DNA of 5,915 nucleotides from a virus. Its lineage: Duplodnaviria; Heunggongvirae; Uroviricota; Caudoviricetes. The stretch lies in the IMG/VR virus record IMGVR_UViG_2585427787_000007. One strand, 5' to 3'. Both the position numbers and the translations under genes were made by a program. Under the pieces are notes generated by a model. The model ran no database searches and was not told the origin of the DNA. It saw only the letters and a program-made list of their open reading frames with translations. Below are positions 1 through 5,915 of this stretch, one piece after another; position 1 is the first letter of the stretch; each line of letters begins with the position of its first letter.

Positions 1-2
1 CC

Positions 3-203
3 GGACATCAGCGCTATCTCTGCTCTCATTGCCGTAAAACATGGCAACTGCAGTTCACTTACACCGCTTCTCAACCCGGTACGCACCAGAAAATCATTGA
101 TATGGCCATGAATGGCGTTGGATGCCGGGCAACCGCCCGCATTATGGGCGTTGGCCTCAACACGATTTTCCGCCATTTAAAAAACTCAGGCCGCAGTCGG
201 TAA
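3..203 (+). CDS. insA: IS1 InsA (transposition repressor), 5'-truncated by the window edge
   Basis: Frame 3 reads ...[66 protein letters not shown], ending at TAA 201-203; matches the InsA C-terminal region from memory. Confidence 0.85.
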
Positions 204-625
204 CCTCGCGCATACAGCCGGGCAGTGACGTCATCGTCTGCGCGGAAATGGACGAACAGTGGGGATACGTCGGGGCTAAATCGCGCCAGCGCTGGCTGTT
301 TTACGCGTATGACAGGCTCCGGAAGACGGTTGTTGCGCACGTATTCGGTGAACGCACTATGGCGACGCTGGGGCGTCTTATGAGCCTGCTGTCACCCTTT
401 GACGTGGTGATATGGATGACGGATGGCTGGCCGCTGTATGAATCCCGCCTGAAGGGAAAGCTGCACGTAATCAGCAAGCGATATACGCAGCGAATTGAGC
501 GGCATAACCTGAATCTGAGGCAGCACCTGGCACGGCTGGGACGGAAGTCGCTGTCGTTCTCAAAATCGGTGGAGCTGCATGACAAAGTCATCGGGCATTA
601 TCTGAACATAAAACACTATCAATAA
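122..625 (+). CDS. insB: IS1 InsB ORF (expressed as the InsAB' fusion transposase after -1 frameshift)
   Basis: 167-aa [19 protein letters not shown]...[15 protein letters not shown]; near-identical to InsB from memory, with a few substitutions suggesting an iso-IS1 variant. Confidence 0.85.
176..185 (+). other. IS1 programmed -1 ribosomal frameshift motif (TTTAAAAAAC, A6C) producing the InsAB' transposase
   Basis: A6C run seen at 179-185 near the end of insA, overlapping the insB frame; established IS1 biology. Confidence 0.7.
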
Positions 626-640
626 GTTGGAGTCATTACC
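618..640 (+). repeat. IS1 terminal inverted repeat (right end)
   Basis: ATCAATAAGTTGGAGTCATTACC read directly; sequence composition changes abruptly at 641. Confidence 0.8.
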
Positions 641-705: not shown

Positions 706-1335
706 TTGTGGGCCTATTGTATTAAAGTCCAAAAGGGGGCTGACGTCACTTATTCTTTCCGAAAAATCAGCAGGGGTAAAGTCACAACAAATGAACCACA
801 AAATATGACTCAGCGCGTATTCGCTTTGTTTGATAAAACAGATAAAGAGTTAAGATCATTTGATGGCAGCGCAGTCAATTTTGATGACAAAATCGATTGT
901 ATTTATATAAAAGATCAATTTTATGTATTTCATAAGAAAAGTTTTGAGGCTATTGTAGGCTTGGAGGTTGAGTTTACAGAAGCTGCACAAAAAACATTAA
1001 ATACAATTAAAGAACTTGATCTTATTGAAGGTTTAGATGTTATTGAACAAGCTATTCTTCATAAGCCATCACTGAGAAAAATTCTCACTCATATCGCTGA
1101 GAAAGGTAACCATACGGTTCTGGAAAAGAATGATGTTCAAGCTATGAATGATGTGCTAAAAATGTTTCAGAACGAAGAGTTTAAGACCAATGAGCATGGT
1201 AAATTAGTCATAGAAGATGAGAGGCAAGGAAGAAACTTTCTCAAACTGTTAAATGATTATTATAAACAAGGCATGACTACAAAAAAATACTATGGTACGG
1301 ATAGCGGAAATGTGATTAACCCTATTAAGGCGTAA
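706..1335 (+). CDS. Hypothetical protein, AT-rich; probably the 3' fragment of a gene decapitated by the IS1 insertion (frame open back to the IS1 junction at 641)
   Basis: Frame 1 has no stop between 583 and 1335. The only in-frame start candidates after the IS1 end are TTG 706 and ATG 805. Hand counts on sample 60-mers give about 23-35% G+C against about 60% in ydfU. No family recognised from sequence. Confidence 0.55.
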   Translation: MWAYCIKVQKGADVTYSFRKISRGKVTTNEPQNMTQRVFALFDKTDKELRSFDGSAVNFDDKIDCIYIKDQFYVFHKKSFEAIVGLEVEFTEAAQKTLNTIKELDLIEGLDVIEQAILHKPSLRKILTHIAEKGNHTVLEKNDVQAMNDVLKMFQNEEFKTNEHGKLVIEDERQGRNFLKLLNDYYKQGMTTKKYYGTDSGNVINPIKA

Positions 1336-1683
1336 AGCATATACTATATCTGGAACTGAAATACCAGCCGCCATCAGAAAGAACTGATGGGGCTTACAGA
1401 TAGTAAGTAAATATAAAATGTTAAGGTATTTTTCATGCAAAAATGAAAATCATTGGCACAAATTAGAAACTAAGTAAATTGCTAATACTAATAACTTATT
1501 ATTCTACTTACTATTTGCATGGAGTTATTGTGAATTGCTGGAAAGGTGGGTAATGTTTTTGTAGAATCACGGCGGGTGCTTGAGGCTATCTGCCTCGGGC
1601 ACGAACACCAAAGGCAGATAGAGAAAAGCCCCAGTTAACATTACGCGTCCTGCAAGACGTTTAACATTAATCTGAGGCTCCCT

Positions 1684-1896
1684 ATGCATGACAACATCAG
1701 GTTAGCCTCTTATGTGCCGAAAGGCAAGGAGAAGCAGGCTATGAAGCAGCAAAAGGCGATGTTAATCGCCCTGATCGTCATCTGTTTAACCGTCATAGTG
1801 ACGGCACTGGTAACGAGGAAAGACCTCTGCGAGGTACGAATCCGAACCGGCCAGACGGAGGTCGCTGTCTTCACAGCTTACGAACCTGAGGAGTAA
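1684..1896 (+). CDS. mok-like in-frame upstream reading frame of the hok locus (N-terminally extended Hok, 70 codons)
   Basis: ATG 1684 is preceded by GAGG at 1674-1677 with a 6 nt spacer and is in frame with hokD. My recollection is that chromosomal mok frames are N-terminal extensions of hok; that is not verified here. Confidence 0.4.
   Translation: MHDNIRLASYVPKGKEKQAMKQQKAMLIALIVICLTVIVTALVTRKDLCEVRIRTGQTEVAVFTAYEPEE
1741..1896 (+). CDS. hokD: Hok/Gef-family type I toxin (small membrane-depolarising peptide), HokD/RelF-like
   Basis: 51-aa product MKQQKAMLIALIVICLTVIVTALVTRKDLCEVRIRTGQTEVAVFTAYEPEE with a hydrophobic TM segment and the conserved RKxLCE...EVA motif of the Hok family; SD AAGGAG at 1726-1731. 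Confidence 0.9.
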   Translation: MKQQKAMLIALIVICLTVIVTALVTRKDLCEVRIRTGQTEVAVFTAYEPEE

Positions 1897-1903
1897 GAGA
1901 CCC

Positions 1904-1925
1904 GGCGAGGGAGAAATCCCTCGCC
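1904..1925 (+). other. Stable hairpin in the hok 3' UTR (9-bp stem GGCGAGGGA/TCCCTCGCC, GAAA loop)
   Basis: Perfect inverted repeat read directly, 8 nt after the hokD stop; hok mRNAs are known to carry structured 3' ends involved in fold-back inhibition. Confidence 0.45.
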
Positions 1926-1965
1926 ACCTCTGATGTGGCAGGCATCCTCAACGCACCCGCACTTA

Positions 1966-1990
1966 ACCCGCTTCGGCGGGTTTTTGTTTT
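1966..1990 (+). terminator. Rho-independent terminator of the hok transcript (stem ACCCGC/GCGGGT, TTCG loop, T-rich tail)
   Basis: 6-bp GC-rich stem with a UUCG tetraloop followed by TTTTTGTTTTT. Confidence 0.6.
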
Positions 1991-2112: not shown

Positions 2113-2364
2113 ATGATGAACATCGAAGAACTGCGTAAAATTTTTTGTGAAGATGGCCTCTATGCTGTGTGCGTTGAAAATGGAAATCTTGTTAGTCATT
2201 ACCGCATTATGTGTTTGCGAAAGAATGGGGCTGCGTTAATTAATTTTGTGGATGCTCGGGTCACGGACGGATTTATCTTGCGCGACGGTGAGTTTGTCAC
2301 TTCATTACAGGCATTGAAAGAGATCGGAATAAAAGCTGGCTTTTCTGCTTTTTCAGAAGAATAA
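2113..2364 (+). CDS. rem: Rem, small prophage protein of unknown function (Qin-type prophage)
   Basis: 83-aa ORF MMNIEELRKIFCEDGLYAVCVENGNLVSHYRIMCLRKNGAALINFVDARVTDGF... matches my recollection of E. coli Rem, and it sits immediately downstream of hokD as in Qin. SD GGAAGGA at 2101-2107. Confidence 0.8.
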   Translation: MMNIEELRKIFCEDGLYAVCVENGNLVSHYRIMCLRKNGAALINFVDARVTDGFILRDGEFVTSLQALKEIGIKAGFSAFSEE

Positions 2365-2710: not shown

Positions 2711-3760
2711 GTGCGGGTATTACTTCGACCTGTTCTGGTACCGGAACTCGGGCTGGTGGTCGTTAAGCCGGGCCGTGAATCCATGCCGGTATTCCACAAT
2801 ACCCGGGTACTGGTGGAGCCGGAACCGAAAAGCATGCGTAATCTGCCGTCCGGGGTCGTTCCTGCCGTTCGCCAGCCGCTGGTGGAAGACAAAACATTGC
2901 TGCCGTTTTTCAGTAACGCACGGGTAATTCGTGCTGCTGGTGGTGCTGGTGCATTGTCTGACTGGCTGTTGCGCCATATTAAATCCTGCCAGTGGCCACA
3001 CGGCGATTATCATCACAGCGAAACCGTTATTCACCGTTATGGTACCGGCGCAATGGTGTTGTGCTGGCACTGCGACAACCAGCTGCGTGACCAGACATCC
3101 GAATCACTCGAGCAACTTGCTCATCAAAATCTGTCAGCATGGATGATTGACGTCATCGGTCACGCAATAAGCGGTACGCAGGAGCGTGAATTATCTCTGG
3201 CTGAATTATCCTGGTGGGCGGTCCGCAATCAGGTGGCGGACGCGCTACCGGAAGCGGTATTACGTCGTTCGCTGGGGTTGCGTGCGGAAAAAATCCGCTC
3301 AATGTACCGTGAAAGCGACATCGTACCGGGAGAGCAGACCGCCACCAGCATACTGAAACAGCGCACAAAAAATCTTGCGCCGCTGCCTCACGCCCACCAG
3401 CAACAGAACCCACCACAGGAAAAGACGGTGGTCAGCATTGCCGTTGATCCTGAGTCTCCGGAATCTTTCATGAAACGACCTAAACGTCGCCGCTGGGTTA
3501 ACGAGAAATACACACGCTGGGTGAAGACACAGCCGTGTGCGTGTTGTGGTAAGCCAGCCGACGATCCCCATCACCTGATTGGTCATGGTCAGGGCGGAAT
3601 GGGGACAAAATCTCACGATATTTTCACGCTACCGCTGTGTCGGGAGCATCACAACGAGCTTCATGCGGATCCTCTGGCGTTCGAAGAAAAGCATGGTTCT
3701 CAGGTTGATTTAATTTTTCGTTTTCTTGATCACGCCTTTGCAACTGGCGTGCTTGGGTAA
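2711..3760 (+). CDS. ydfU: DUF968-family prophage protein YdfU-like, with a C-terminal Cys/His HNH-like metal-binding motif (start uncertain: GTG 2711 or ATG 2783)
   Basis: 349-aa ORF; C-terminal ...WVKTQPCACCGKPADDPHHLIGHGQGGMGTKSHDIFTLPLCREHHNELHADP... matches the YdfU/DUF968 family from memory; position between rem and the Q gene agrees with Qin. Confidence 0.8.
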   Translation: MRVLLRPVLVPELGLVVVKPGRESMPVFHNTRVLVEPEPKSMRNLPSGVVPAVRQPLVEDKTLLPFFSNARVIRAAGGAGALSDWLLRHIKSCQWPHGDYHHSETVIHRYGTGAMVLCWHCDNQLRDQTSESLEQLAHQNLSAWMIDVIGHAISGTQERELSLAELSWWAVRNQVADALPEAVLRRSLGLRAEKIRSMYRESDIVPGEQTATSILKQRTKNLAPLPHAHQQQNPPQEKTVVSIAVDPESPESFMKRPKRRRWVNEKYTRWVKTQPCACCGKPADDPHHLIGHGQGGMGTKSHDIFTLPLCREHHNELHADPLAFEEKHGSQVDLIFRFLDHAFATGVLG

Positions 3761-3772
3761 AAGAGGTGAGTG

Positions 3773-4147
3773 ATGCTCATAGATTTGGTTTTACCTTACC
3801 CGCCGACGGTGAACACTTACTGGCGACGCCGTGGCAGCACATATTTTATCTCGGAGGAGGGAAAGCGTTATCGCCGGGCTGTGGCGCTTATTGTTCGCCA
3901 GCAGCGGCTGAAATTAAGCCTGTCCGGAAGGCTGGCGATAAAGGTGATTGCAGAGCCACCGGATAAGCGTCGTCGCGACCTGGACAATATCCTGAAAGCA
4001 CCGCTGGATGCGCTGACGCATGCGGGAGTGTTAATGGACGATGAGCAGTTTGATGAAATCAATATCGTTCGTGGTCAGCCAGTATCTGGTGGACGTCTGG
4101 GGGTGAAGATTTACCCCATAATGCATGAAGAGCAGGTCAAAAAATGA
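3773..4147 (+). CDS. rusA: RusA-family Holliday junction resolvase (crossover junction endodeoxyribonuclease)
   Basis: About 125 aa; acidic motifs RRRDLDN and MDDEQ correspond to the catalytic Asp cluster of RusA. SD AAGAGG at 3761-3766 with a 6 nt spacer to ATG 3773 (GTG 3770 also in frame). Confidence 0.8.
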   Translation: MLIDLVLPYPPTVNTYWRRRGSTYFISEEGKRYRRAVALIVRQQRLKLSLSGRLAIKVIAEPPDKRRRDLDNILKAPLDALTHAGVLMDDEQFDEINIVRGQPVSGGRLGVKIYPIMHEEQVKK

Positions 4148-4965
4148 AACTGGAAGATTTACCGAAATACTACTCCCCAAAATCCCCTTGCCTGACCGAT
4201 GCATCGGCCTCAACGTCAAAAGATGCGCTGAGTATCACTGATGTGATGGCCGCGCAGGGCATGACACAGAATCGGGCTGAGATGGGGTTTTCTGCGTTCC
4301 TGGGGAAAATGGGCATCAGTATGAATGACAGGGCGCGGGCAACAGAATTACTGGCAGATTATGCACTCAGTCGGTGCGATCGTGTGGCGGCGTTGAGAAA
4401 ACTTCCGGCAGAAATAAAACCGTTAGTGATGCGCATTATGGCTTCGTACGCTTTTGAGGATTATGCCCGCAGCGCAGCGAGTAAAAAGCAGTGCCCTTGT
4501 TGCTATGGGGAAAAATTTATTGAAAGCGTAGTTTTTACAAACAAGGTCCAGTATCCGGATGGTAAGCCGCCGGTATGGGCAAAGTGTACGAAAGGTGTGT
4601 ATCCGTCTTACTGGGAAGAATGGAAAAAAGTCAGGGAGGTGGTAAAAGTTGCCTGTCCGGAGTGTGGCGGAAAGGGTGAGGTTTCCACCGTCTGTAAGGA
4701 TTGCCGTGGGCGTGGTGTCGCCATTCACCGTGAAGAGTCGGTAAAACGTGGTATGCCTGTTATCAGAGACTGCCAGCGTTGTGGTGGTCGTGGCTATGAA
4801 AGACTACCATCAACGGAGGCATTTAATGCTATATGCGAGGTGACAAACCAGATAACACGCGCGTCATGGGAAAAAACAGTTAAGAAATTCTATGATGCGC
4901 TGGTGACCCGGTTTGATATTGAAGAAGCATGGGCTGAGCGGCAGTTAAAAAAGGTAACTAGGTAA
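4144..4965 (+). CDS. Late-gene antitermination protein Q (phage 82/21/Qin-type Q) with three CxxCxGxG zinc-finger-like repeats
   Basis: 273-aa ORF; N-terminus MKLEDLPKYYSPKS..LTDASASTS and the C-terminal YDAL region resemble the QuuQ/YdfT-type Q from memory. CPECGGKG, CKDCRGRG and CQRCGGRG repeats read directly. Start ATG 4144 overlaps the rusA stop (ATGA). Confidence 0.8.
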   Translation: MKLEDLPKYYSPKSPCLTDASASTSKDALSITDVMAAQGMTQNRAEMGFSAFLGKMGISMNDRARATELLADYALSRCDRVAALRKLPAEIKPLVMRIMASYAFEDYARSAASKKQCPCCYGEKFIESVVFTNKVQYPDGKPPVWAKCTKGVYPSYWEEWKKVREVVKVACPECGGKGEVSTVCKDCRGRGVAIHREESVKRGMPVIRDCQRCGGRGYERLPSTEAFNAICEVTNQITRASWEKTVKKFYDALVTRFDIEEAWAERQLKKVTR

Positions 4966-4970
4966 CAAGG

Positions 4971-4998
4971 TTGATTTTTCCGGAATCTGTGGTAAATT
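4971..4998 (+). promoter_or_regulatory. PR'-like late promoter with the expected qut region (-35 TTGATT, 16-bp spacer, -10 TAAATT)
   Basis: Hexamers immediately downstream of the Q stop; lambda PR' has -35 TTGACT and -10 TAAATT in the same position relative to Q (recalled, not aligned). Confidence 0.5.
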
Positions 4999-5045
4999 CG
5001 TCATAAAGATGGGCTTTTTATACCTGACGTTAGAAGAGTTTCTAC

Positions 5046-5070
5046 AACCCGCCACCGAGCGGGTTTTTTA
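5046..5070 (+). terminator. tR'-like intrinsic terminator (stem AACCCGC/GCGGGTT, 6-nt loop, T6 tail)
   Basis: Inverted repeat 5046-5052/5059-5065 followed by TTTTTTATT; lies about 45 nt downstream of the putative PR' start, as expected for a Q-antiterminated terminator. Confidence 0.55.
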
Positions 5071-5109
5071 TTGCGGAATTAATTACGGACCGTTATTATT
5101 CTGCTCCCG

Positions 5110-5148
5110 TGATCTTACCCAGCAATAGTGGACACGCGGCTAAGTGAG
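5110..5148 (+). repeat. IS3 left terminal inverted repeat (approximate extent)
   Basis: Begins with the TG dinucleotide typical of IS3-family ends; the 39-bp extent is recalled rather than measured, because the right end is outside the window. Confidence 0.55.
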
Positions 5149-5174
5149 TAAACTCTCAGTCAGAGGTGACTCAC

Positions 5175-5474
5175 ATGACAAAAACAGTATCAACCAGTAA
5201 AAAACCCCGTAAACAGCATTCGCCTGAATTTCGCAGTGAAGCCCTGAAGCTTGCTGAACGCATCGGTGTTACTGCCGCAGCCCGTGAACTCAGCCTGTAT
5301 GAATCACAACTCTACAACTGGCGCAGTAAACAGCAAAATCAGCAGACGTCTTCTGAACGTGAACTGGAGATGTCTACCGAGATTGCACGTCTCAAACGCC
5401 AGCTGGCAGAACGGGATGAAGAGCTGGCTATCCTCCAAAAGGCCGCGACATACTTCGCGAAGCGCCTGAAATGA
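5175..5474 (+). CDS. insE: IS3 OrfA (InsE), helix-turn-helix/leucine-zipper transposase subunit
   Basis: [52 protein letters not shown]...[15 protein letters not shown] matches IS3 InsE from memory. Confidence 0.9.
5435..5441 (+). other. IS3 -1 programmed frameshift motif (CCAAAAG, slippage at A-AAG) generating the OrfAB transposase
   Basis: A AAG at 5438-5441 in the insE frame; a -1 shift here reads through in the insF frame (..ILQK then [15 protein letters not shown]..). Established IS3-family mechanism; exact site inferred. Confidence 0.5.
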
Positions 5475-5915
5475 AGTATGTCTTTATTGAAAAACATCAG
5501 GCTGAGTTCAGCATCAAAGCAATGTGCCGCGTGCTCCGGGTGGCCCGCAGCGGCTGGTATACGTGGTGTCAGCGGCGGACAAGGATAAGCACGCGTCAGC
5601 AGTTCCGCCAACACTGCGACAGCGTTGTCCTCGCGGCTTTTACCCGGTCAAAACAGCGTTACGGTGCCCCACGCCTGACGGATGAACTGCGTGCTCAGGG
5701 TTACCCCTTTAACGTAAAAACCGTGGCGGCAAGCCTGCGCCGTCAGGGACTGAGGGCAAAGGCCTCCCGGAAGTTCAGCCCGGTCAGCTACCGCGCACAC
5801 GGCCTGCCTGTGTCAGAAAATCTGTTGGAGCAGGATTTTTACGCCAGTGGCCCGAACCAGAAGTGGGCAGGAGACATCACGTACTTACGTACAGATGAAG
5901 GCTGGCTGTATCTGG
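5471..5915 (+). CDS. insF: IS3 OrfB (InsF, DDE transposase catalytic subunit), 3'-truncated by the window edge
   Basis: [36 protein letters not shown]... in the -1 frame relative to insE, overlapping its stop (ATGA); matches IS3 InsF from memory. Confidence 0.9.

Follow-up and report, generated by a model that had tools for sequence, protein, structure and literature searches.

Described hok/sok systems

The hok/sok locus (parB) of plasmid R1 has a role in post-segregational killing, and its mechanism has been described (PMC9841398). A second system, hokW/mokW/sokW, is carried by the lambdoid Shiga-toxin phage 933W and the Sakai prophage Sp5 (AF125520; PMC8621323). It is a functional type I toxin–antitoxin (TA) system that is partly RNase III- and Hfq-dependent and aids Sp5 release. 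Its antisense RNA, sokW, was seen by northern blot and acts as the antitoxin, and Sok transcription and instability, 3′ processing of the hok mRNA and killing upon Sok depletion have all been shown for this pair (PMC8621323).

The E. coli chromosomal loci hokA, hokB, hokC (gef) and hokE belong to the same family. In K-12 they are reported to have lost their activity to IS elements or point mutations (Pedersen and Gerdes 1999, cited in PMC7232551), and native chromosomal hokA, hokB and hokC gave no post-segregational killing according to the summary of that work in bioRxiv 10.1101/2025.08.07.668861. HokD (RelF), encoded in the K-12 prophage Qin, is listed as a toxic control in the latter study.

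A hok/mok/sok cassette in the window

The locus reported here lies in the window, i.e., the whole 5,915-nt stretch of viral DNA that was analysed. Region 1535–1990 is very probably a complete hok/mok/sok type I TA cassette of a Qin-like lambdoid prophage, belonging to the hokW–sokW sub-family of 933W and Sp5 (Table 1). It holds what characterises the hok/sok (Hok/Gef) family, i.e., the toxin, the leader, mok and tac/fbi, together with predicted alternative pairings and a predicted Sok gene. A sequence-only reading of the window had picked out the TAGAAT hexamer, the two complementary 8-mers, the ATG at 1684, the hok open reading frame, the 3′ hairpin and the terminator, all of which lie where that reading placed them.

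Table 1. Features of the hok/mok/sok cassette, in window coordinates
Feature	Position	Strand	Details
Putative hok promoter	1535-1567	+	-10 TAGAAT at 1562-1567; -35 TGGAAA at 1539-1544 (17-nt spacer) or TTGCTG at 1535-1540 (21-nt spacer)
Predicted full-length hok mRNA, ~415 nt	1574-1988	+	5′ end placed at G1574 (range 1571-1574); 3′ end in the U-tract past the terminator
tac (translational activator element)	1574-1585	+	GGGUGCUUGAGG; complementarity to fbi reaches 2 nt farther upstream, to 1572
5′ leader stem-loop	1586-1621	+	1586-1595 paired with 1612-1621 (folds)
Predicted Sok antisense RNA, ~69-74 nt	1624-1692	-	single-stranded 5′ tail GUCAUGCAUAGGG, long hairpin, 3′ UUUUCUCU tract
ucb (upstream complementary box / anti-SD)	1626-1634	+	AAGCCCCAG; kept in 22/22 diverse leaders
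mok Shine–Dalgarno (SD)	1674-1677	+	GAGG, 6 nt upstream of the mok ATG; invariant in all aligned leaders
Hypervariable segment around the mok start	1678-1700	+	loop and stem of the target hairpin; complementary to the Sok 5′ tail
mok-like ORF, 70 codons	1684-1896	+	in frame with hok, common stop codon (ORF list)
Putative sok promoter	1699-1727	-	-35 TTGCCT (complement of 1722-1727), 17-nt spacer, -10 TAACCT (complement of 1699-1704); start ~1692
dcb (downstream complementary box)	1704-1709	+	AGCCUC; pairs with GAGGCU at 1674-1679 in the leader fold
hok SD	1726-1731	+	AAGGAG; left end of K-12 hokD homology here, ~1727
hok toxin gene, 51 aa	1741-1896	+	Pfam PF01848 HOK_GEF, E=1.2e-23, 82.9 bits (cutoff 22)
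3′ UTR hairpin, 9 bp, GAAA loop	1904-1925	+	perfect inverted repeat I4; in every fold
fbi (fold-back inhibitory element)	1946-1960	+	CCUCAA-C-GCACCC(GC); pairs with tac
Intrinsic terminator of hok mRNA	1965-1990	+	7-bp stem (1965-1982), UUCG loop, T-run (terminator scan)

R1-type and hokD-like loci align element by element with the window locus. All elements of plasmid R1 can be placed in the window, and the R1 locus and its IncF copies (e.g., L010) share with it both the set of elements and their order, i.e., tac, ucb, mok SD, mok, dcb, sok promoter, hok SD, hok, 3′ hairpin, fbi and terminator; so is the predicted closed/open switch (PMC9841398). However, the two Hok proteins are only 43% identical, and the R1 tac/fbi pair, GGCGCUU / AAGCGCC, differs from that of the window with compensating changes. 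In R1-type loci mok is out of frame with hok (mok 443–655 and hok from 501 in L010), whereas the window mok is in frame. The first leader hairpin of R1 has a much larger loop, and the ucb/SD hairpin of the window has an extra 16-nt insert. Finally, the R1 system sits on a plasmid and serves post-segregational killing, whereas the window locus resides in a prophage.

The hokW/mokW/sokW locus of 933W is considerably closer, with 91.7% identity over window positions 1561–1968. The two loci are identical in tac, ucb, mok SD, dcb, hok SD, fbi and both sok promoter hexamers, have mok in frame with hok, are alike in Sok length and architecture and are both carried by lambdoid phages. They differ in 4 of the 51 Hok residues (the window toxin being that of K-12 HokD), in the terminator, in the region upstream of the hok -10 hexamer and in a ~20-nt segment covering the mok start and the Sok tail, which is 2 nt shorter in the window. 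Nor does the 933W locus precede rem/DUF968/Q, as the window locus does; it occupies another region. Among the chromosomal loci, hokC-like ones (e.g., L040 and L033) resemble the window locus in tac sequence, fbi position and leader architecture, but hokA, hokB, hokC and hokE occupy fixed chromosomal sites rather than prophages, and their Hok identity is ~80% or lower.

Leader RNA and the predicted switch

The sequence-only reading had suggested that the locus retains a hok-type leader of its own, and this is borne out by two profile searches. Positions 1574–1746 on the plus strand match the Rfam family RF01794 (“sok”) over the entire model (1–157/157) with 110.2 bits (gathering score 59, E=3e-25), and the leader matches a hok-leader nhmmer profile with E=6e-54. 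The RF01794 match was rejected as direct evidence for Sok, as it lies on the plus strand and the family models the hok leader (sense) rather than the antisense RNA.

In silico folding reproduces, as a prediction, a switch between a closed and an open leader. In the minimum-free-energy (MFE) fold of the full-length transcript, tac pairs with fbi, and 1627–1634 pairs with 1672–1679 (pair probabilities >0.99), so that ucb hides the mok SD. When the 3′ end is removed, tac changes partner and ucb positions 1626–1632 pair with 1574–1581; in this 3′-truncated form, as in the fold of the leader alone, the mok SD is paired with dcb. The ucb, SD and dcb helices are conserved with compensatory changes (RNAalifold), and the Rfam consensus structure contains the dcb/SD pair as well. 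The tac element is invariant among hokD-like loci and varies in other genera with a compensating fbi change, and in one locus a U-to-C change in tac is compensated in both fbi and ucb.

The 5′ leader helix is likewise present in the Rfam consensus structure, and RNAalifold retains it with covariation (AU:11, UA:8, GC:1 at one pair). The overlapping stretch 1592–1602 can instead pair with 1576–1586 to form an 11-bp hairpin, which resembles the metastable hairpin of the nascent R1 transcript. The mok-like frame matches the geometry of the annotated 933W mokW. Around its start codon, column conservation falls to 0.75–0.81 between invariant flanks; the sequence of 1678–1700 differs in nearly every locus, with the hairpin still kept, and the window allele is 2 nt shorter than the others. 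Only 36 records carry the whole leader, 1561–1726, at ≥99% identity. This hypervariable segment is presumed to be a specificity determinant.

Sok antisense RNA

Whether a Sok-like RNA is encoded on the minus strand had been left open by the sequence-only reading, and homology supplies an answer in the form of a predicted Sok. The annotated sokW misc_RNA (71 nt) of phage 933W (AF125520) maps co-linearly to window positions 1624–1692 on the minus strand, and the predicted RNA folds into its 5′ tail and a -28 kcal/mol hairpin. A generic sigma-70 consensus scan of the minus strand called no sok promoter above its thresholds, because the -10 hexamer TAACCT matches the consensus at only 3/6 positions. 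The assignment was nevertheless kept, since the hexamers and their spacing align with the TTGCGC-17-TATCCT of R1-type loci and with the 933W promoter.

Toxin, 3′ UTR and transcript ends

The encoded Hok protein is 100% identical to K-12 HokD/RelF (WP_000813254.1), an accession that is also annotated in strain C6. Downstream of it, the two 3′ structures that had been recognised from the letters, the GAAA-loop hairpin and the UUCG-loop terminator, are both confirmed. A hairpin is kept at the 1904–1925 site in homologs, including those of R1 type, via compensatory changes, and by analogy with R1 (PMC9841398) it is probably the stem-loop that protects the 3′ end of the processed, translatable mRNA. 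K-12 and most Qin-like loci have the identical terminator; in 933W and the plasmid copies another sequence takes its place. Sub-threshold Rfam matches to isrK (25.7 bits vs. 50) and rsmX over 1900–1986 were rejected as reflecting a hairpin-plus-terminator shape only, those to ceN48, sR55 and Yar_3 as chance matches, and that to Trp_leader at 4966–5072 (27 vs. 41) as merely the terminator past the Q gene.

At the other end, G1574 is supported as the mRNA start by the Rfam model, which begins there, by R1-type leaders, which align from the same base, and by two plasmid copies (L007 and L008) whose fbi complement ends opposite it. From these comparisons we infer both the 5′ end and the site of 3′ processing, as well as the mok–hok coupling. 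The -10 hexamer aligns with the TAGAAT/TAGGAT of homologous hok loci, and a consensus promoter scan gave TGGAAA-17-TAGAAT 9/12 consensus matches. Upstream of ~1561, however, the window differs from all other sampled loci, which carry TTGCGG or TTGCTG with a 16-nt spacer; the hok -35 region is therefore derived from the cargo. With this region replaced, hok transcription may be weaker or different.

Relation to hokD of K-12

The K-12 hokD of Qin encodes an identical Hok and is 99.5% identical to the window in the hok SD, coding sequence, 3′ hairpin (one G/A difference), fbi and terminator, followed in both by rem/DUF968/Q. In K-12-type genomes, however, the megablast alignment begins at query base 388, i.e., window position 1727, and the alignment of locus L002 agrees. 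To the left of this point, K-12 has the flank of relE, which ends 71 nt before hokD, whereas the window has the full hok leader; K-12 hokD is thus without the hok promoter, tac, ucb, the mok start, dcb and the whole sok gene. On this alignment, K-12 hokD is the same cassette after relBE-containing cargo has taken the place of all that lies left of the hok SD, and the arrangement “hokD behind relBE” is the derived, cut-down and 5′-truncated form.

Among 5426 complete E. coli genomes, the hok leader is present in 4167 and the K-12 relE–hokD junction in 1173, and the window allele occurs at 100% identity in ~36–40 complete genomes. The sequence-only reading had called the locus differently organised, which holds relative to K-12 relBE–hokD, but the organisation is not unusual: going by these counts, the leader-bearing arrangement is the common, canonical form in E. 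coli prophages. Given its frequency, its annotation since the 933W record (AF125520) and the experimental tests of hokW–sokW (PMC8621323), the locus is not novel. It is of a kind already known, is anatomically intact and may be active in the strain. As a discovery the result carries little weight; it confirms that a textbook RNA switch was recognised by eye from the letters alone. In practical terms, PGAP labels the hokD coding sequence alone at such loci, and neither mok nor the Sok RNA, which leaves the antitoxin gene unannotated in thousands of genomes, and the name “hokD” covers either a full TA system or a leaderless remnant.

Fold-back pairing and alternative explanations

The 8-mer GCGGGTGC at 1572–1579 is exactly complementary to GCACCCGC at 1953–1960, a match that the sequence-only reading had likened to tac/fbi fold-back. 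Chance alone would give approximately one perfect 8-mer inverted pair in a 451-nt region, and a second, unrelated one (I5) is present in this region, as would be consistent with a chance inverted repeat without structural role. However, the complementarity is part of a 14-bp pairing of 1572–1585 with 1946–1960 in which C1952 is bulged; this pairing belongs to the MFE fold of the full-length transcript with pair probabilities of 0.97–1.0, and its duplex energy of -26.9 kcal/mol was reached by only 1 of 2000 shuffles of the 3′ UTR. In a per-locus duplex search of 69 loci (Escherichia, Kluyvera, Photorhabdus, Citrobacter, Enterobacillus and others), fbi lay 45–57 nt past the stop codon in most cases. 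The two elements also covary in a set of 54 hok loci that spans several genera, with 87% of cells paired vs. 28–53% when the partner is slid, and one pair is UA in 31 sequences, CG in 21 and UG in 2, and is never unpaired. In the MAFFT alignment, sub-families with and without the bulged base run out of register, which blurs the distal half of the helix in the pair count, and the covariation evidence used is that of the in-register half and of the per-locus duplex search. The agreement with the experimentally established tac/fbi of R1 (PMC9841398) further argues for a genuine fold-back element, and a chance repeat is extremely improbable.

The locus might also be a leaderless hok remnant of K-12 type, expressed solely at the end of an operon that begins upstream, and the 99.5–100% identity of 1727–2112 and of the Hok protein to K-12 hokD and its 3′ flank would fit this. 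There is hardly any probability left for such a reading, as the 153 nt before the K-12 breakpoint (1574–1726) form a full hok leader by both the Rfam and the nhmmer search, while an nhmmer search of K-12 with the same profile gave no leader match, and the upstream neighbour is a KwaB-like fragment rather than relE. It is therefore not a K-12-type relBE–hokD (relBEF) fusion, and the region upstream of 1741, which was checked against the K-12 relE–hokD junction, shares sequence with it only from ~1727. A rather more serious alternative, though still an unlikely one, is that the cassette, though whole in its anatomy, is silent or decaying in function, i.e., transcribed too weakly or only by read-through, owing to insertion of cargo over the hok -35 and to IS erosion, much like the chromosomal hok loci without post-segregational killing in the work summarised above. 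This would account for the sequence unique to the window upstream of ~1561 and for the -35 spacing of 21 nt vs. 16 nt in homologs, as well as for the IS elements on both sides, one of which truncates the KwaB-like neighbour. Relatives in decay do exist: one has mutations in fbi and the terminator, three carry IS421 in the 3′ UTR (L009, L013 and the hokC-like L033), and another has a garbled, apparently frameshifted Hok sequence. On the other hand, all regulatory elements downstream of the -10 hexamer are intact, tac, ucb, SD, dcb, fbi and the sok promoter hexamers match functional hokW–sokW exactly, and the alternative -35, TGGAAA, stands at the optimal 17-nt spacing. Moreover, the allele is kept without change in the genomes counted above, and its toxin has the sequence of HokD, a toxic protein. 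The reading that we prefer remains that of a complete cassette.

Proposed mechanism

Based on the anatomy of the complete cassette and on the R1 and hokW work, the following stepwise mechanism may be proposed. A weak constitutive promoter with the -10 TAGAAT would yield the ~415-nt mRNA, in which tac is locked to fbi (1946–1958/60). In this closed form, ucb would lie over the mok SD, leaving mok and the coupled hok untranslated and Sok unable to bind. Slow 3′ exonucleolytic trimming to the 1904–1925 hairpin would remove fbi, upon which tac would move to ucb, and the mok SD region and dcb would refold as the Sok target hairpin. The unstable Sok (~70 nt, minus strand, from ~1692 to 1624) would then use its 5′ tail to pair with the region of the mok start, leading to blocked translation and RNase III cleavage. 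If the supply of Sok ended, e.g., on prophage loss or induction, Mok and Hok would be translated and the 51-aa Hok would harm the inner membrane.

Prophage context and cargo exchange

The sequence-only reading had noted that no relBE lies upstream, which is correct: the upstream ORF at 706–1335 is a KwaB-like fragment (Pfam KwaB) truncated by IS1, and 1336–1560 is AT-rich and non-coding. The prophage shows degradation: IS1 lies on the upstream side and an IS3-family element on the downstream side, after the Q gene. A search of complete E. coli genomes for the IS1/KwaB junction found no match spanning it. A functional link of Hok with the neighbouring Kiwa-like defence gene was considered and dropped for want of supporting evidence; a Hok census reports that hok is not enriched beside defence systems (bioRxiv 10.1101/2025.08.07.668861).

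The cassette occupies a constant prophage position, with a variable cargo slot on one side and rem/DUF968/rusA/Q on the other. The cargo directly left of hok varies by prophage, being KwaB-like in the window and a RelA/SpoT-domain gene, the Paa adhesin or, in K-12, relBE in others. Strain C6 (NZ_CP195945), whose locus is identical, has the same prophage but lacks the IS1; there, 49 nt left over from a second hok promoter and 5′ leader are found beyond the Kiwa-like cargo. We tentatively suggest, while thinking it doubtful, that the hok leader serves as a recombination anchor or boundary for the exchange of defence and other cargo in Qin-like prophages, and that the mok-start/Sok-tail segments are alleles of orthogonal specificity. 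If the former were true, K-12 relBE–hokD would be one outcome of a recurrent process; if the latter were, orthogonal Sok alleles would let up to 9 copies coexist per genome. The hypervariable Sok-recognition segment and the cargo slot beside hok may serve as markers of prophage module exchange.

Architecture of the hok locus

The hok locus at 1545-1990 is, as judged by sequence, a complete hok/mok/sok member of the prophage hokW-like sub-family, and its toxin is identical to K-12 HokD. A sequence-only reading had proposed that the locus retains its own hok-type leader, that the two ends of its transcript fold back on each other, and that its organisation differs from that of K-12; all of its coordinates proved right when checked on the sequence, its observation was confirmed and its interpretation is supported. 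The window was aligned with 13 loci, including an IncF plasmid's hok/mok locus of the R1 type, the Hok of which is 100% identical to R1 Hok, with thousands of plasmid matches in agreement. Every R1 element could be placed on the window, including the 5′ activator element tac, the upstream and downstream complementary boxes ucb and dcb, and the 3′ fold-back element fbi. The Rfam family RF01794 ("sok") matched over its full model at 1574-1746 on the + strand (110.2 bits, gathering score 59, E=3e-25). Because this match lies on the hok-sense strand, RF01794 is a model of the hok leader, and its consensus helices correspond to four structures, namely tac/ucb together with the 5′ hairpin, the hairpin of ucb and the SD, the SD/dcb target hairpin, and a small one preceding the hok SD; together with the element mapping, this bears out the hok-type leader. 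The mok frame is in frame with hok in the window, as annotated for mokW, whereas it is out of frame in R1-type loci.

Features of the window and the basis of their assignment
Feature	Position	Strand	Basis or remark
IS1 transposase	~1-640		Pfam DDE_Tnp_IS1
KwaB-like (Kiwa) gene	706-1335		C-terminal 209 of 341 codons; Pfam, ORF list
AT-rich spacer	between KwaB-like gene and hok locus		31-38% GC
Putative hok -10 TAGAAT	1562-1567	+	
tac	1574-1585	+	alignment
Predicted Sok	1624-1692	-	pairwise alignment with 933W sokW
ucb	1626-1634	+	alignment
mok SD	1674-1677	+	alignment
mok ATG	1684	+	
Putative sok -10 TAACCT	complement of 1699-1704	-	17-nt spacer to -35
dcb	1704-1709	+	alignment
Putative sok -35 TTGCCT	complement of 1722-1727	-	
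hok SD	1726-1731	+	alignment
hok	1741-1896	+	
3′ hairpin, 9 bp	1904-1925	+	also mapped by alignment to R1-type locus
fbi	1946-1958/60	+	alignment
Terminator, UUCG loop	1965-1982, then T-run to 1990	+	terminator scan, alignment
rem	2113-2364		followed by 92-aa ORF
DUF968/YdfU protein	2711-3760		
RusA	3770-4147		
Antiterminator Q	4144-4965		
IS3-family element	from ~5100 (within 5100-5915)		directly after terminator region downstream of Q

The predicted tac/fbi fold-back and its conservation

The proposed fold-back was based on GCGGGTGC (1572-1579), to which 1953-1960 is exactly complementary; both segments are present. An 8-mer inverted repeat in 451 nt is close to chance expectation, and a second, unrelated perfect 8-mer pair occurs in the same stretch. 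Folding in silico extended the pairing to 14 bp between 1572-1585 and 1946-1960, with C1952 bulged, and the minimum-free-energy fold of the 1572/1574-1986 transcript contains this pairing (pair probabilities 0.97-1.0); the duplex energy, -26.9 kcal/mol, was reached by only one of 2000 shuffles of the 3′ UTR. In this full-length fold, tac lies on fbi while ucb (1627-1634) covers 1672-1679, including the mok SD. When the 3′ end was cut to 1930 or 1926, just past the 3′ hairpin, tac (1574-1581) shifted to ucb (1626-1632). The leader folded alone placed the SD (1674-1679) on dcb (1704-1709), with the mok AUG within the stem, and one intermediate truncation gave an 11-bp 5′ hairpin (1576-1586 with 1592-1602), similar to the metastable one that the nascent R1 transcript forms. 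As predictions, these folds reproduce the R1 switch model (PMC9841398).

A scan of a genome collection yielded 79 further hok loci (Escherichia, Shigella, Kluyvera, Photorhabdus, Citrobacter, Pantoea, Enterobacillus, Klebsiella, Buttiauxella and others), nearly all with a full-length leader. When the first 14 nt were searched against the 3′ UTR in 69 non-redundant loci, the best duplex lay at the homologous place, 45-57 nt past the stop codon, in the great majority. The tac and fbi sequences vary between groups in a compensating manner: GGGUGCUUGAGG with CCUCAA(C)GCACCC in hokD-like loci, ...GAGA with UCUCAA... in Kluyvera, GGGCGCUUGAGA with UCUCAAGCGCCC in Photorhabdus, ...GAAG with CUUCA... 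in Citrobacter (L075), and GGCGCUU with AAGCGCC in the R1 type. On a MAFFT alignment made without fitting to structure, 87% of cells were paired, versus 28-53% when the 3′ partner was slid by 1-3 columns, and one tac/fbi pair is UA in 31 loci, CG in 21, UG in 2 and unpaired in none. In an Enterobacillus locus (L065), a U-to-C change in tac is matched by compensation in both fbi and ucb, as expected if tac pairs alternately with the two. The pairing that had been read from one sequence is thus conserved in place, with compensatory changes.

In three loci (L009, L013, L033), an IS421 insertion separates the 3′ hairpin from fbi, and in L006 point changes affect fbi and the terminator; the pairing is gone in all four, which look like decaying copies. 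These four and L073, whose Hok sequence is garbled and apparently frameshifted, are visibly inactivated.

The predicted Sok antisense RNA

A hok locus of the window's type is carried by 78 records in the phage collection. Among them, the record of the Shiga-toxin phage 933W (AF125520), 91.7% identical at this locus, has mokW, hokW and a 71-nt sokW antisense RNA annotated. A predicted minus-strand Sok RNA found support in homology to sokW and in the promoter hexamers, both of which are the same in the window and 933W by pairwise alignment, whereas the R1 type has TTGCGC-17-TATCCT at this position. A generic sigma-70 scan of the minus strand did not call the sok promoter, the -10 of which fits at 3 of 6 positions only; the putative assignment therefore rests on homology. 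The predicted Sok folds into a single-stranded 5′ tail of 10-13 nt and a long hairpin (-28 kcal/mol), followed by UUUUCUCU.

The hokW-sokW pair has been experimentally shown to be a toxin-antitoxin system of type I, in which HokW is toxic and is neutralised by sokW from its own promoter, partly via RNase III and Hfq (PMC8621323). Northern blots show both RNAs, sokW vanishes upon mitomycin C induction, and the system leads to faster lysis and doubles the release of the Sakai prophage Sp5 (PMC8621323). The implied novelty of the locus was not upheld, as its kind was already known from the 933W annotation and a 2021 functional study, and a recent census preprint reports that hok is enriched in prophages (10.1101/2025.08.07.668861).

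Peculiarities and activity of the window's copy

Upstream of ~1561, the window is unlike all other sampled loci. Those loci have TTGCGG or TTGCTG, a 16-nt spacer and TAGAAT, whereas the window offers as -35 either TTGCTG, 21 nt away from the -10, or TGGAAA, 17 nt away from it, so that the strength of the putative hok promoter is uncertain. An intact but silent locus is a reading to which this altered spacing is relevant, although we regard it as rather unlikely; the elements downstream are all in place, and the window's own hok copy is probably active.

About 20 nt at the mok start (1678-1700), to which the Sok 5′ tail is complementary, are hypervariable within invariant flanks among otherwise near-identical hokD-like loci, and the hairpin here is maintained across loci through compensatory changes. 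The allele in the window is shorter than the others by 2 nt, and only 36 records reach 99% identity or more over the whole leader. Since Sok is encoded in cis, it co-varies with this segment automatically, and keeping multiple hok copies orthogonal would be an obvious candidate role for the segment. Separately, the Hok Tyr47 codon UAC and the following G form UACG (1879-1882) in all aligned loci; UACG in hok genes has been described as a target of A-to-I editing by TadA, which would turn Tyr into Cys (10.1101/2025.08.07.668861).

Comparison with K-12

K-12-type genomes match the window from 1727 rightwards only (99.5%). In K-12, relB and relE sit immediately upstream, and what precedes the hok SD is unrelated to the window; a leader profile searched against the K-12 locus gave no match. 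Identity with the K-12 relE-hokD junction is thereby ruled out, in line with the proposed difference in organisation. K-12 hokD is without the hok promoter, tac, ucb, mok start, dcb and sok. Of 5426 complete E. coli genomes, 4167 carry the leader (1561-1726), at up to 9 copies per genome, and 1173 the K-12 junction; thus, the organisation in the window is the common and canonical one. Strain NRG857c was noted earlier to have an intact hokD homolog (PMC7232551).

Prophage setting and neighbouring cargo

That the window is part of a Qin-like lambdoid E. coli prophage is indicated by its ORFs, by Pfam and by the top database match. Within 1-1335, the IS1 element cuts off the KwaB-like anti-phage gene, giving a junction found in none of the complete E. 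coli genomes of the collection searched. Strain C6 (NZ_CP195945) is 100% identical over 1340-2112, and in the same prophage there, which lacks the IS1, an uninterrupted KwaB-like gene adjoins a gene annotated hokD; at the position of the window's IS3-family element it has IS200C and tRNA genes.

The slot directly left of hok (641-1560 in the window) holds differing AT-rich cargo among prophages (the window and L002-L006, L011, L012 and L015), e.g., KwaB-like, a RelA/SpoT-domain protein, the Paa adhesin and small hypothetical genes, and relBE-ydfV-flxA in K-12, while rem/DUF968/RusA/Q usually lie to the right. In strain C6, 49 nt left over from a second hok promoter and its 5′ leader (L001:7196-7244, GAGTTAAGTAAAATTGCTGCGGGTGCTTGAGGTTGTCTGTCTCAGGCAT; 45/49 matching standard hokD loci) sit immediately to the left of a two-gene Kiwa-like cargo, and the intact hok locus follows on the right; hok-leader sequence therefore brackets the cargo. 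This suggests that recombination at hok leaders, or inside them, may exchange cargo.

A promoter-like site (TTGAAG, 18 nt, TAGAAT; 2005-2034) in the interval from the hok terminator to rem may be the promoter of rem. Just past Q, 4966-5072 combines promoter-like sequence with a strong terminator (AACCCGCCACCGAGCGGGTTTTTTATT), and gave only a sub-threshold Trp_leader match in Rfam; it probably represents the late promoter and tR′ region, the target of Q. Finally, E. coli-type or R1-type hok loci (96-100% identity to the query or R1-type Hok) were found on contigs labelled Veillonella parvula MAG (L025), Acinetobacter idrijaensis (L035), Xanthomonas pisi (L042), Ferruginibacter MAG (L086), Streptomyces morookaense (L087) and Oscillibacter MAG (L088), all six of which most likely represent enterobacterial or plasmid contamination of the assemblies.
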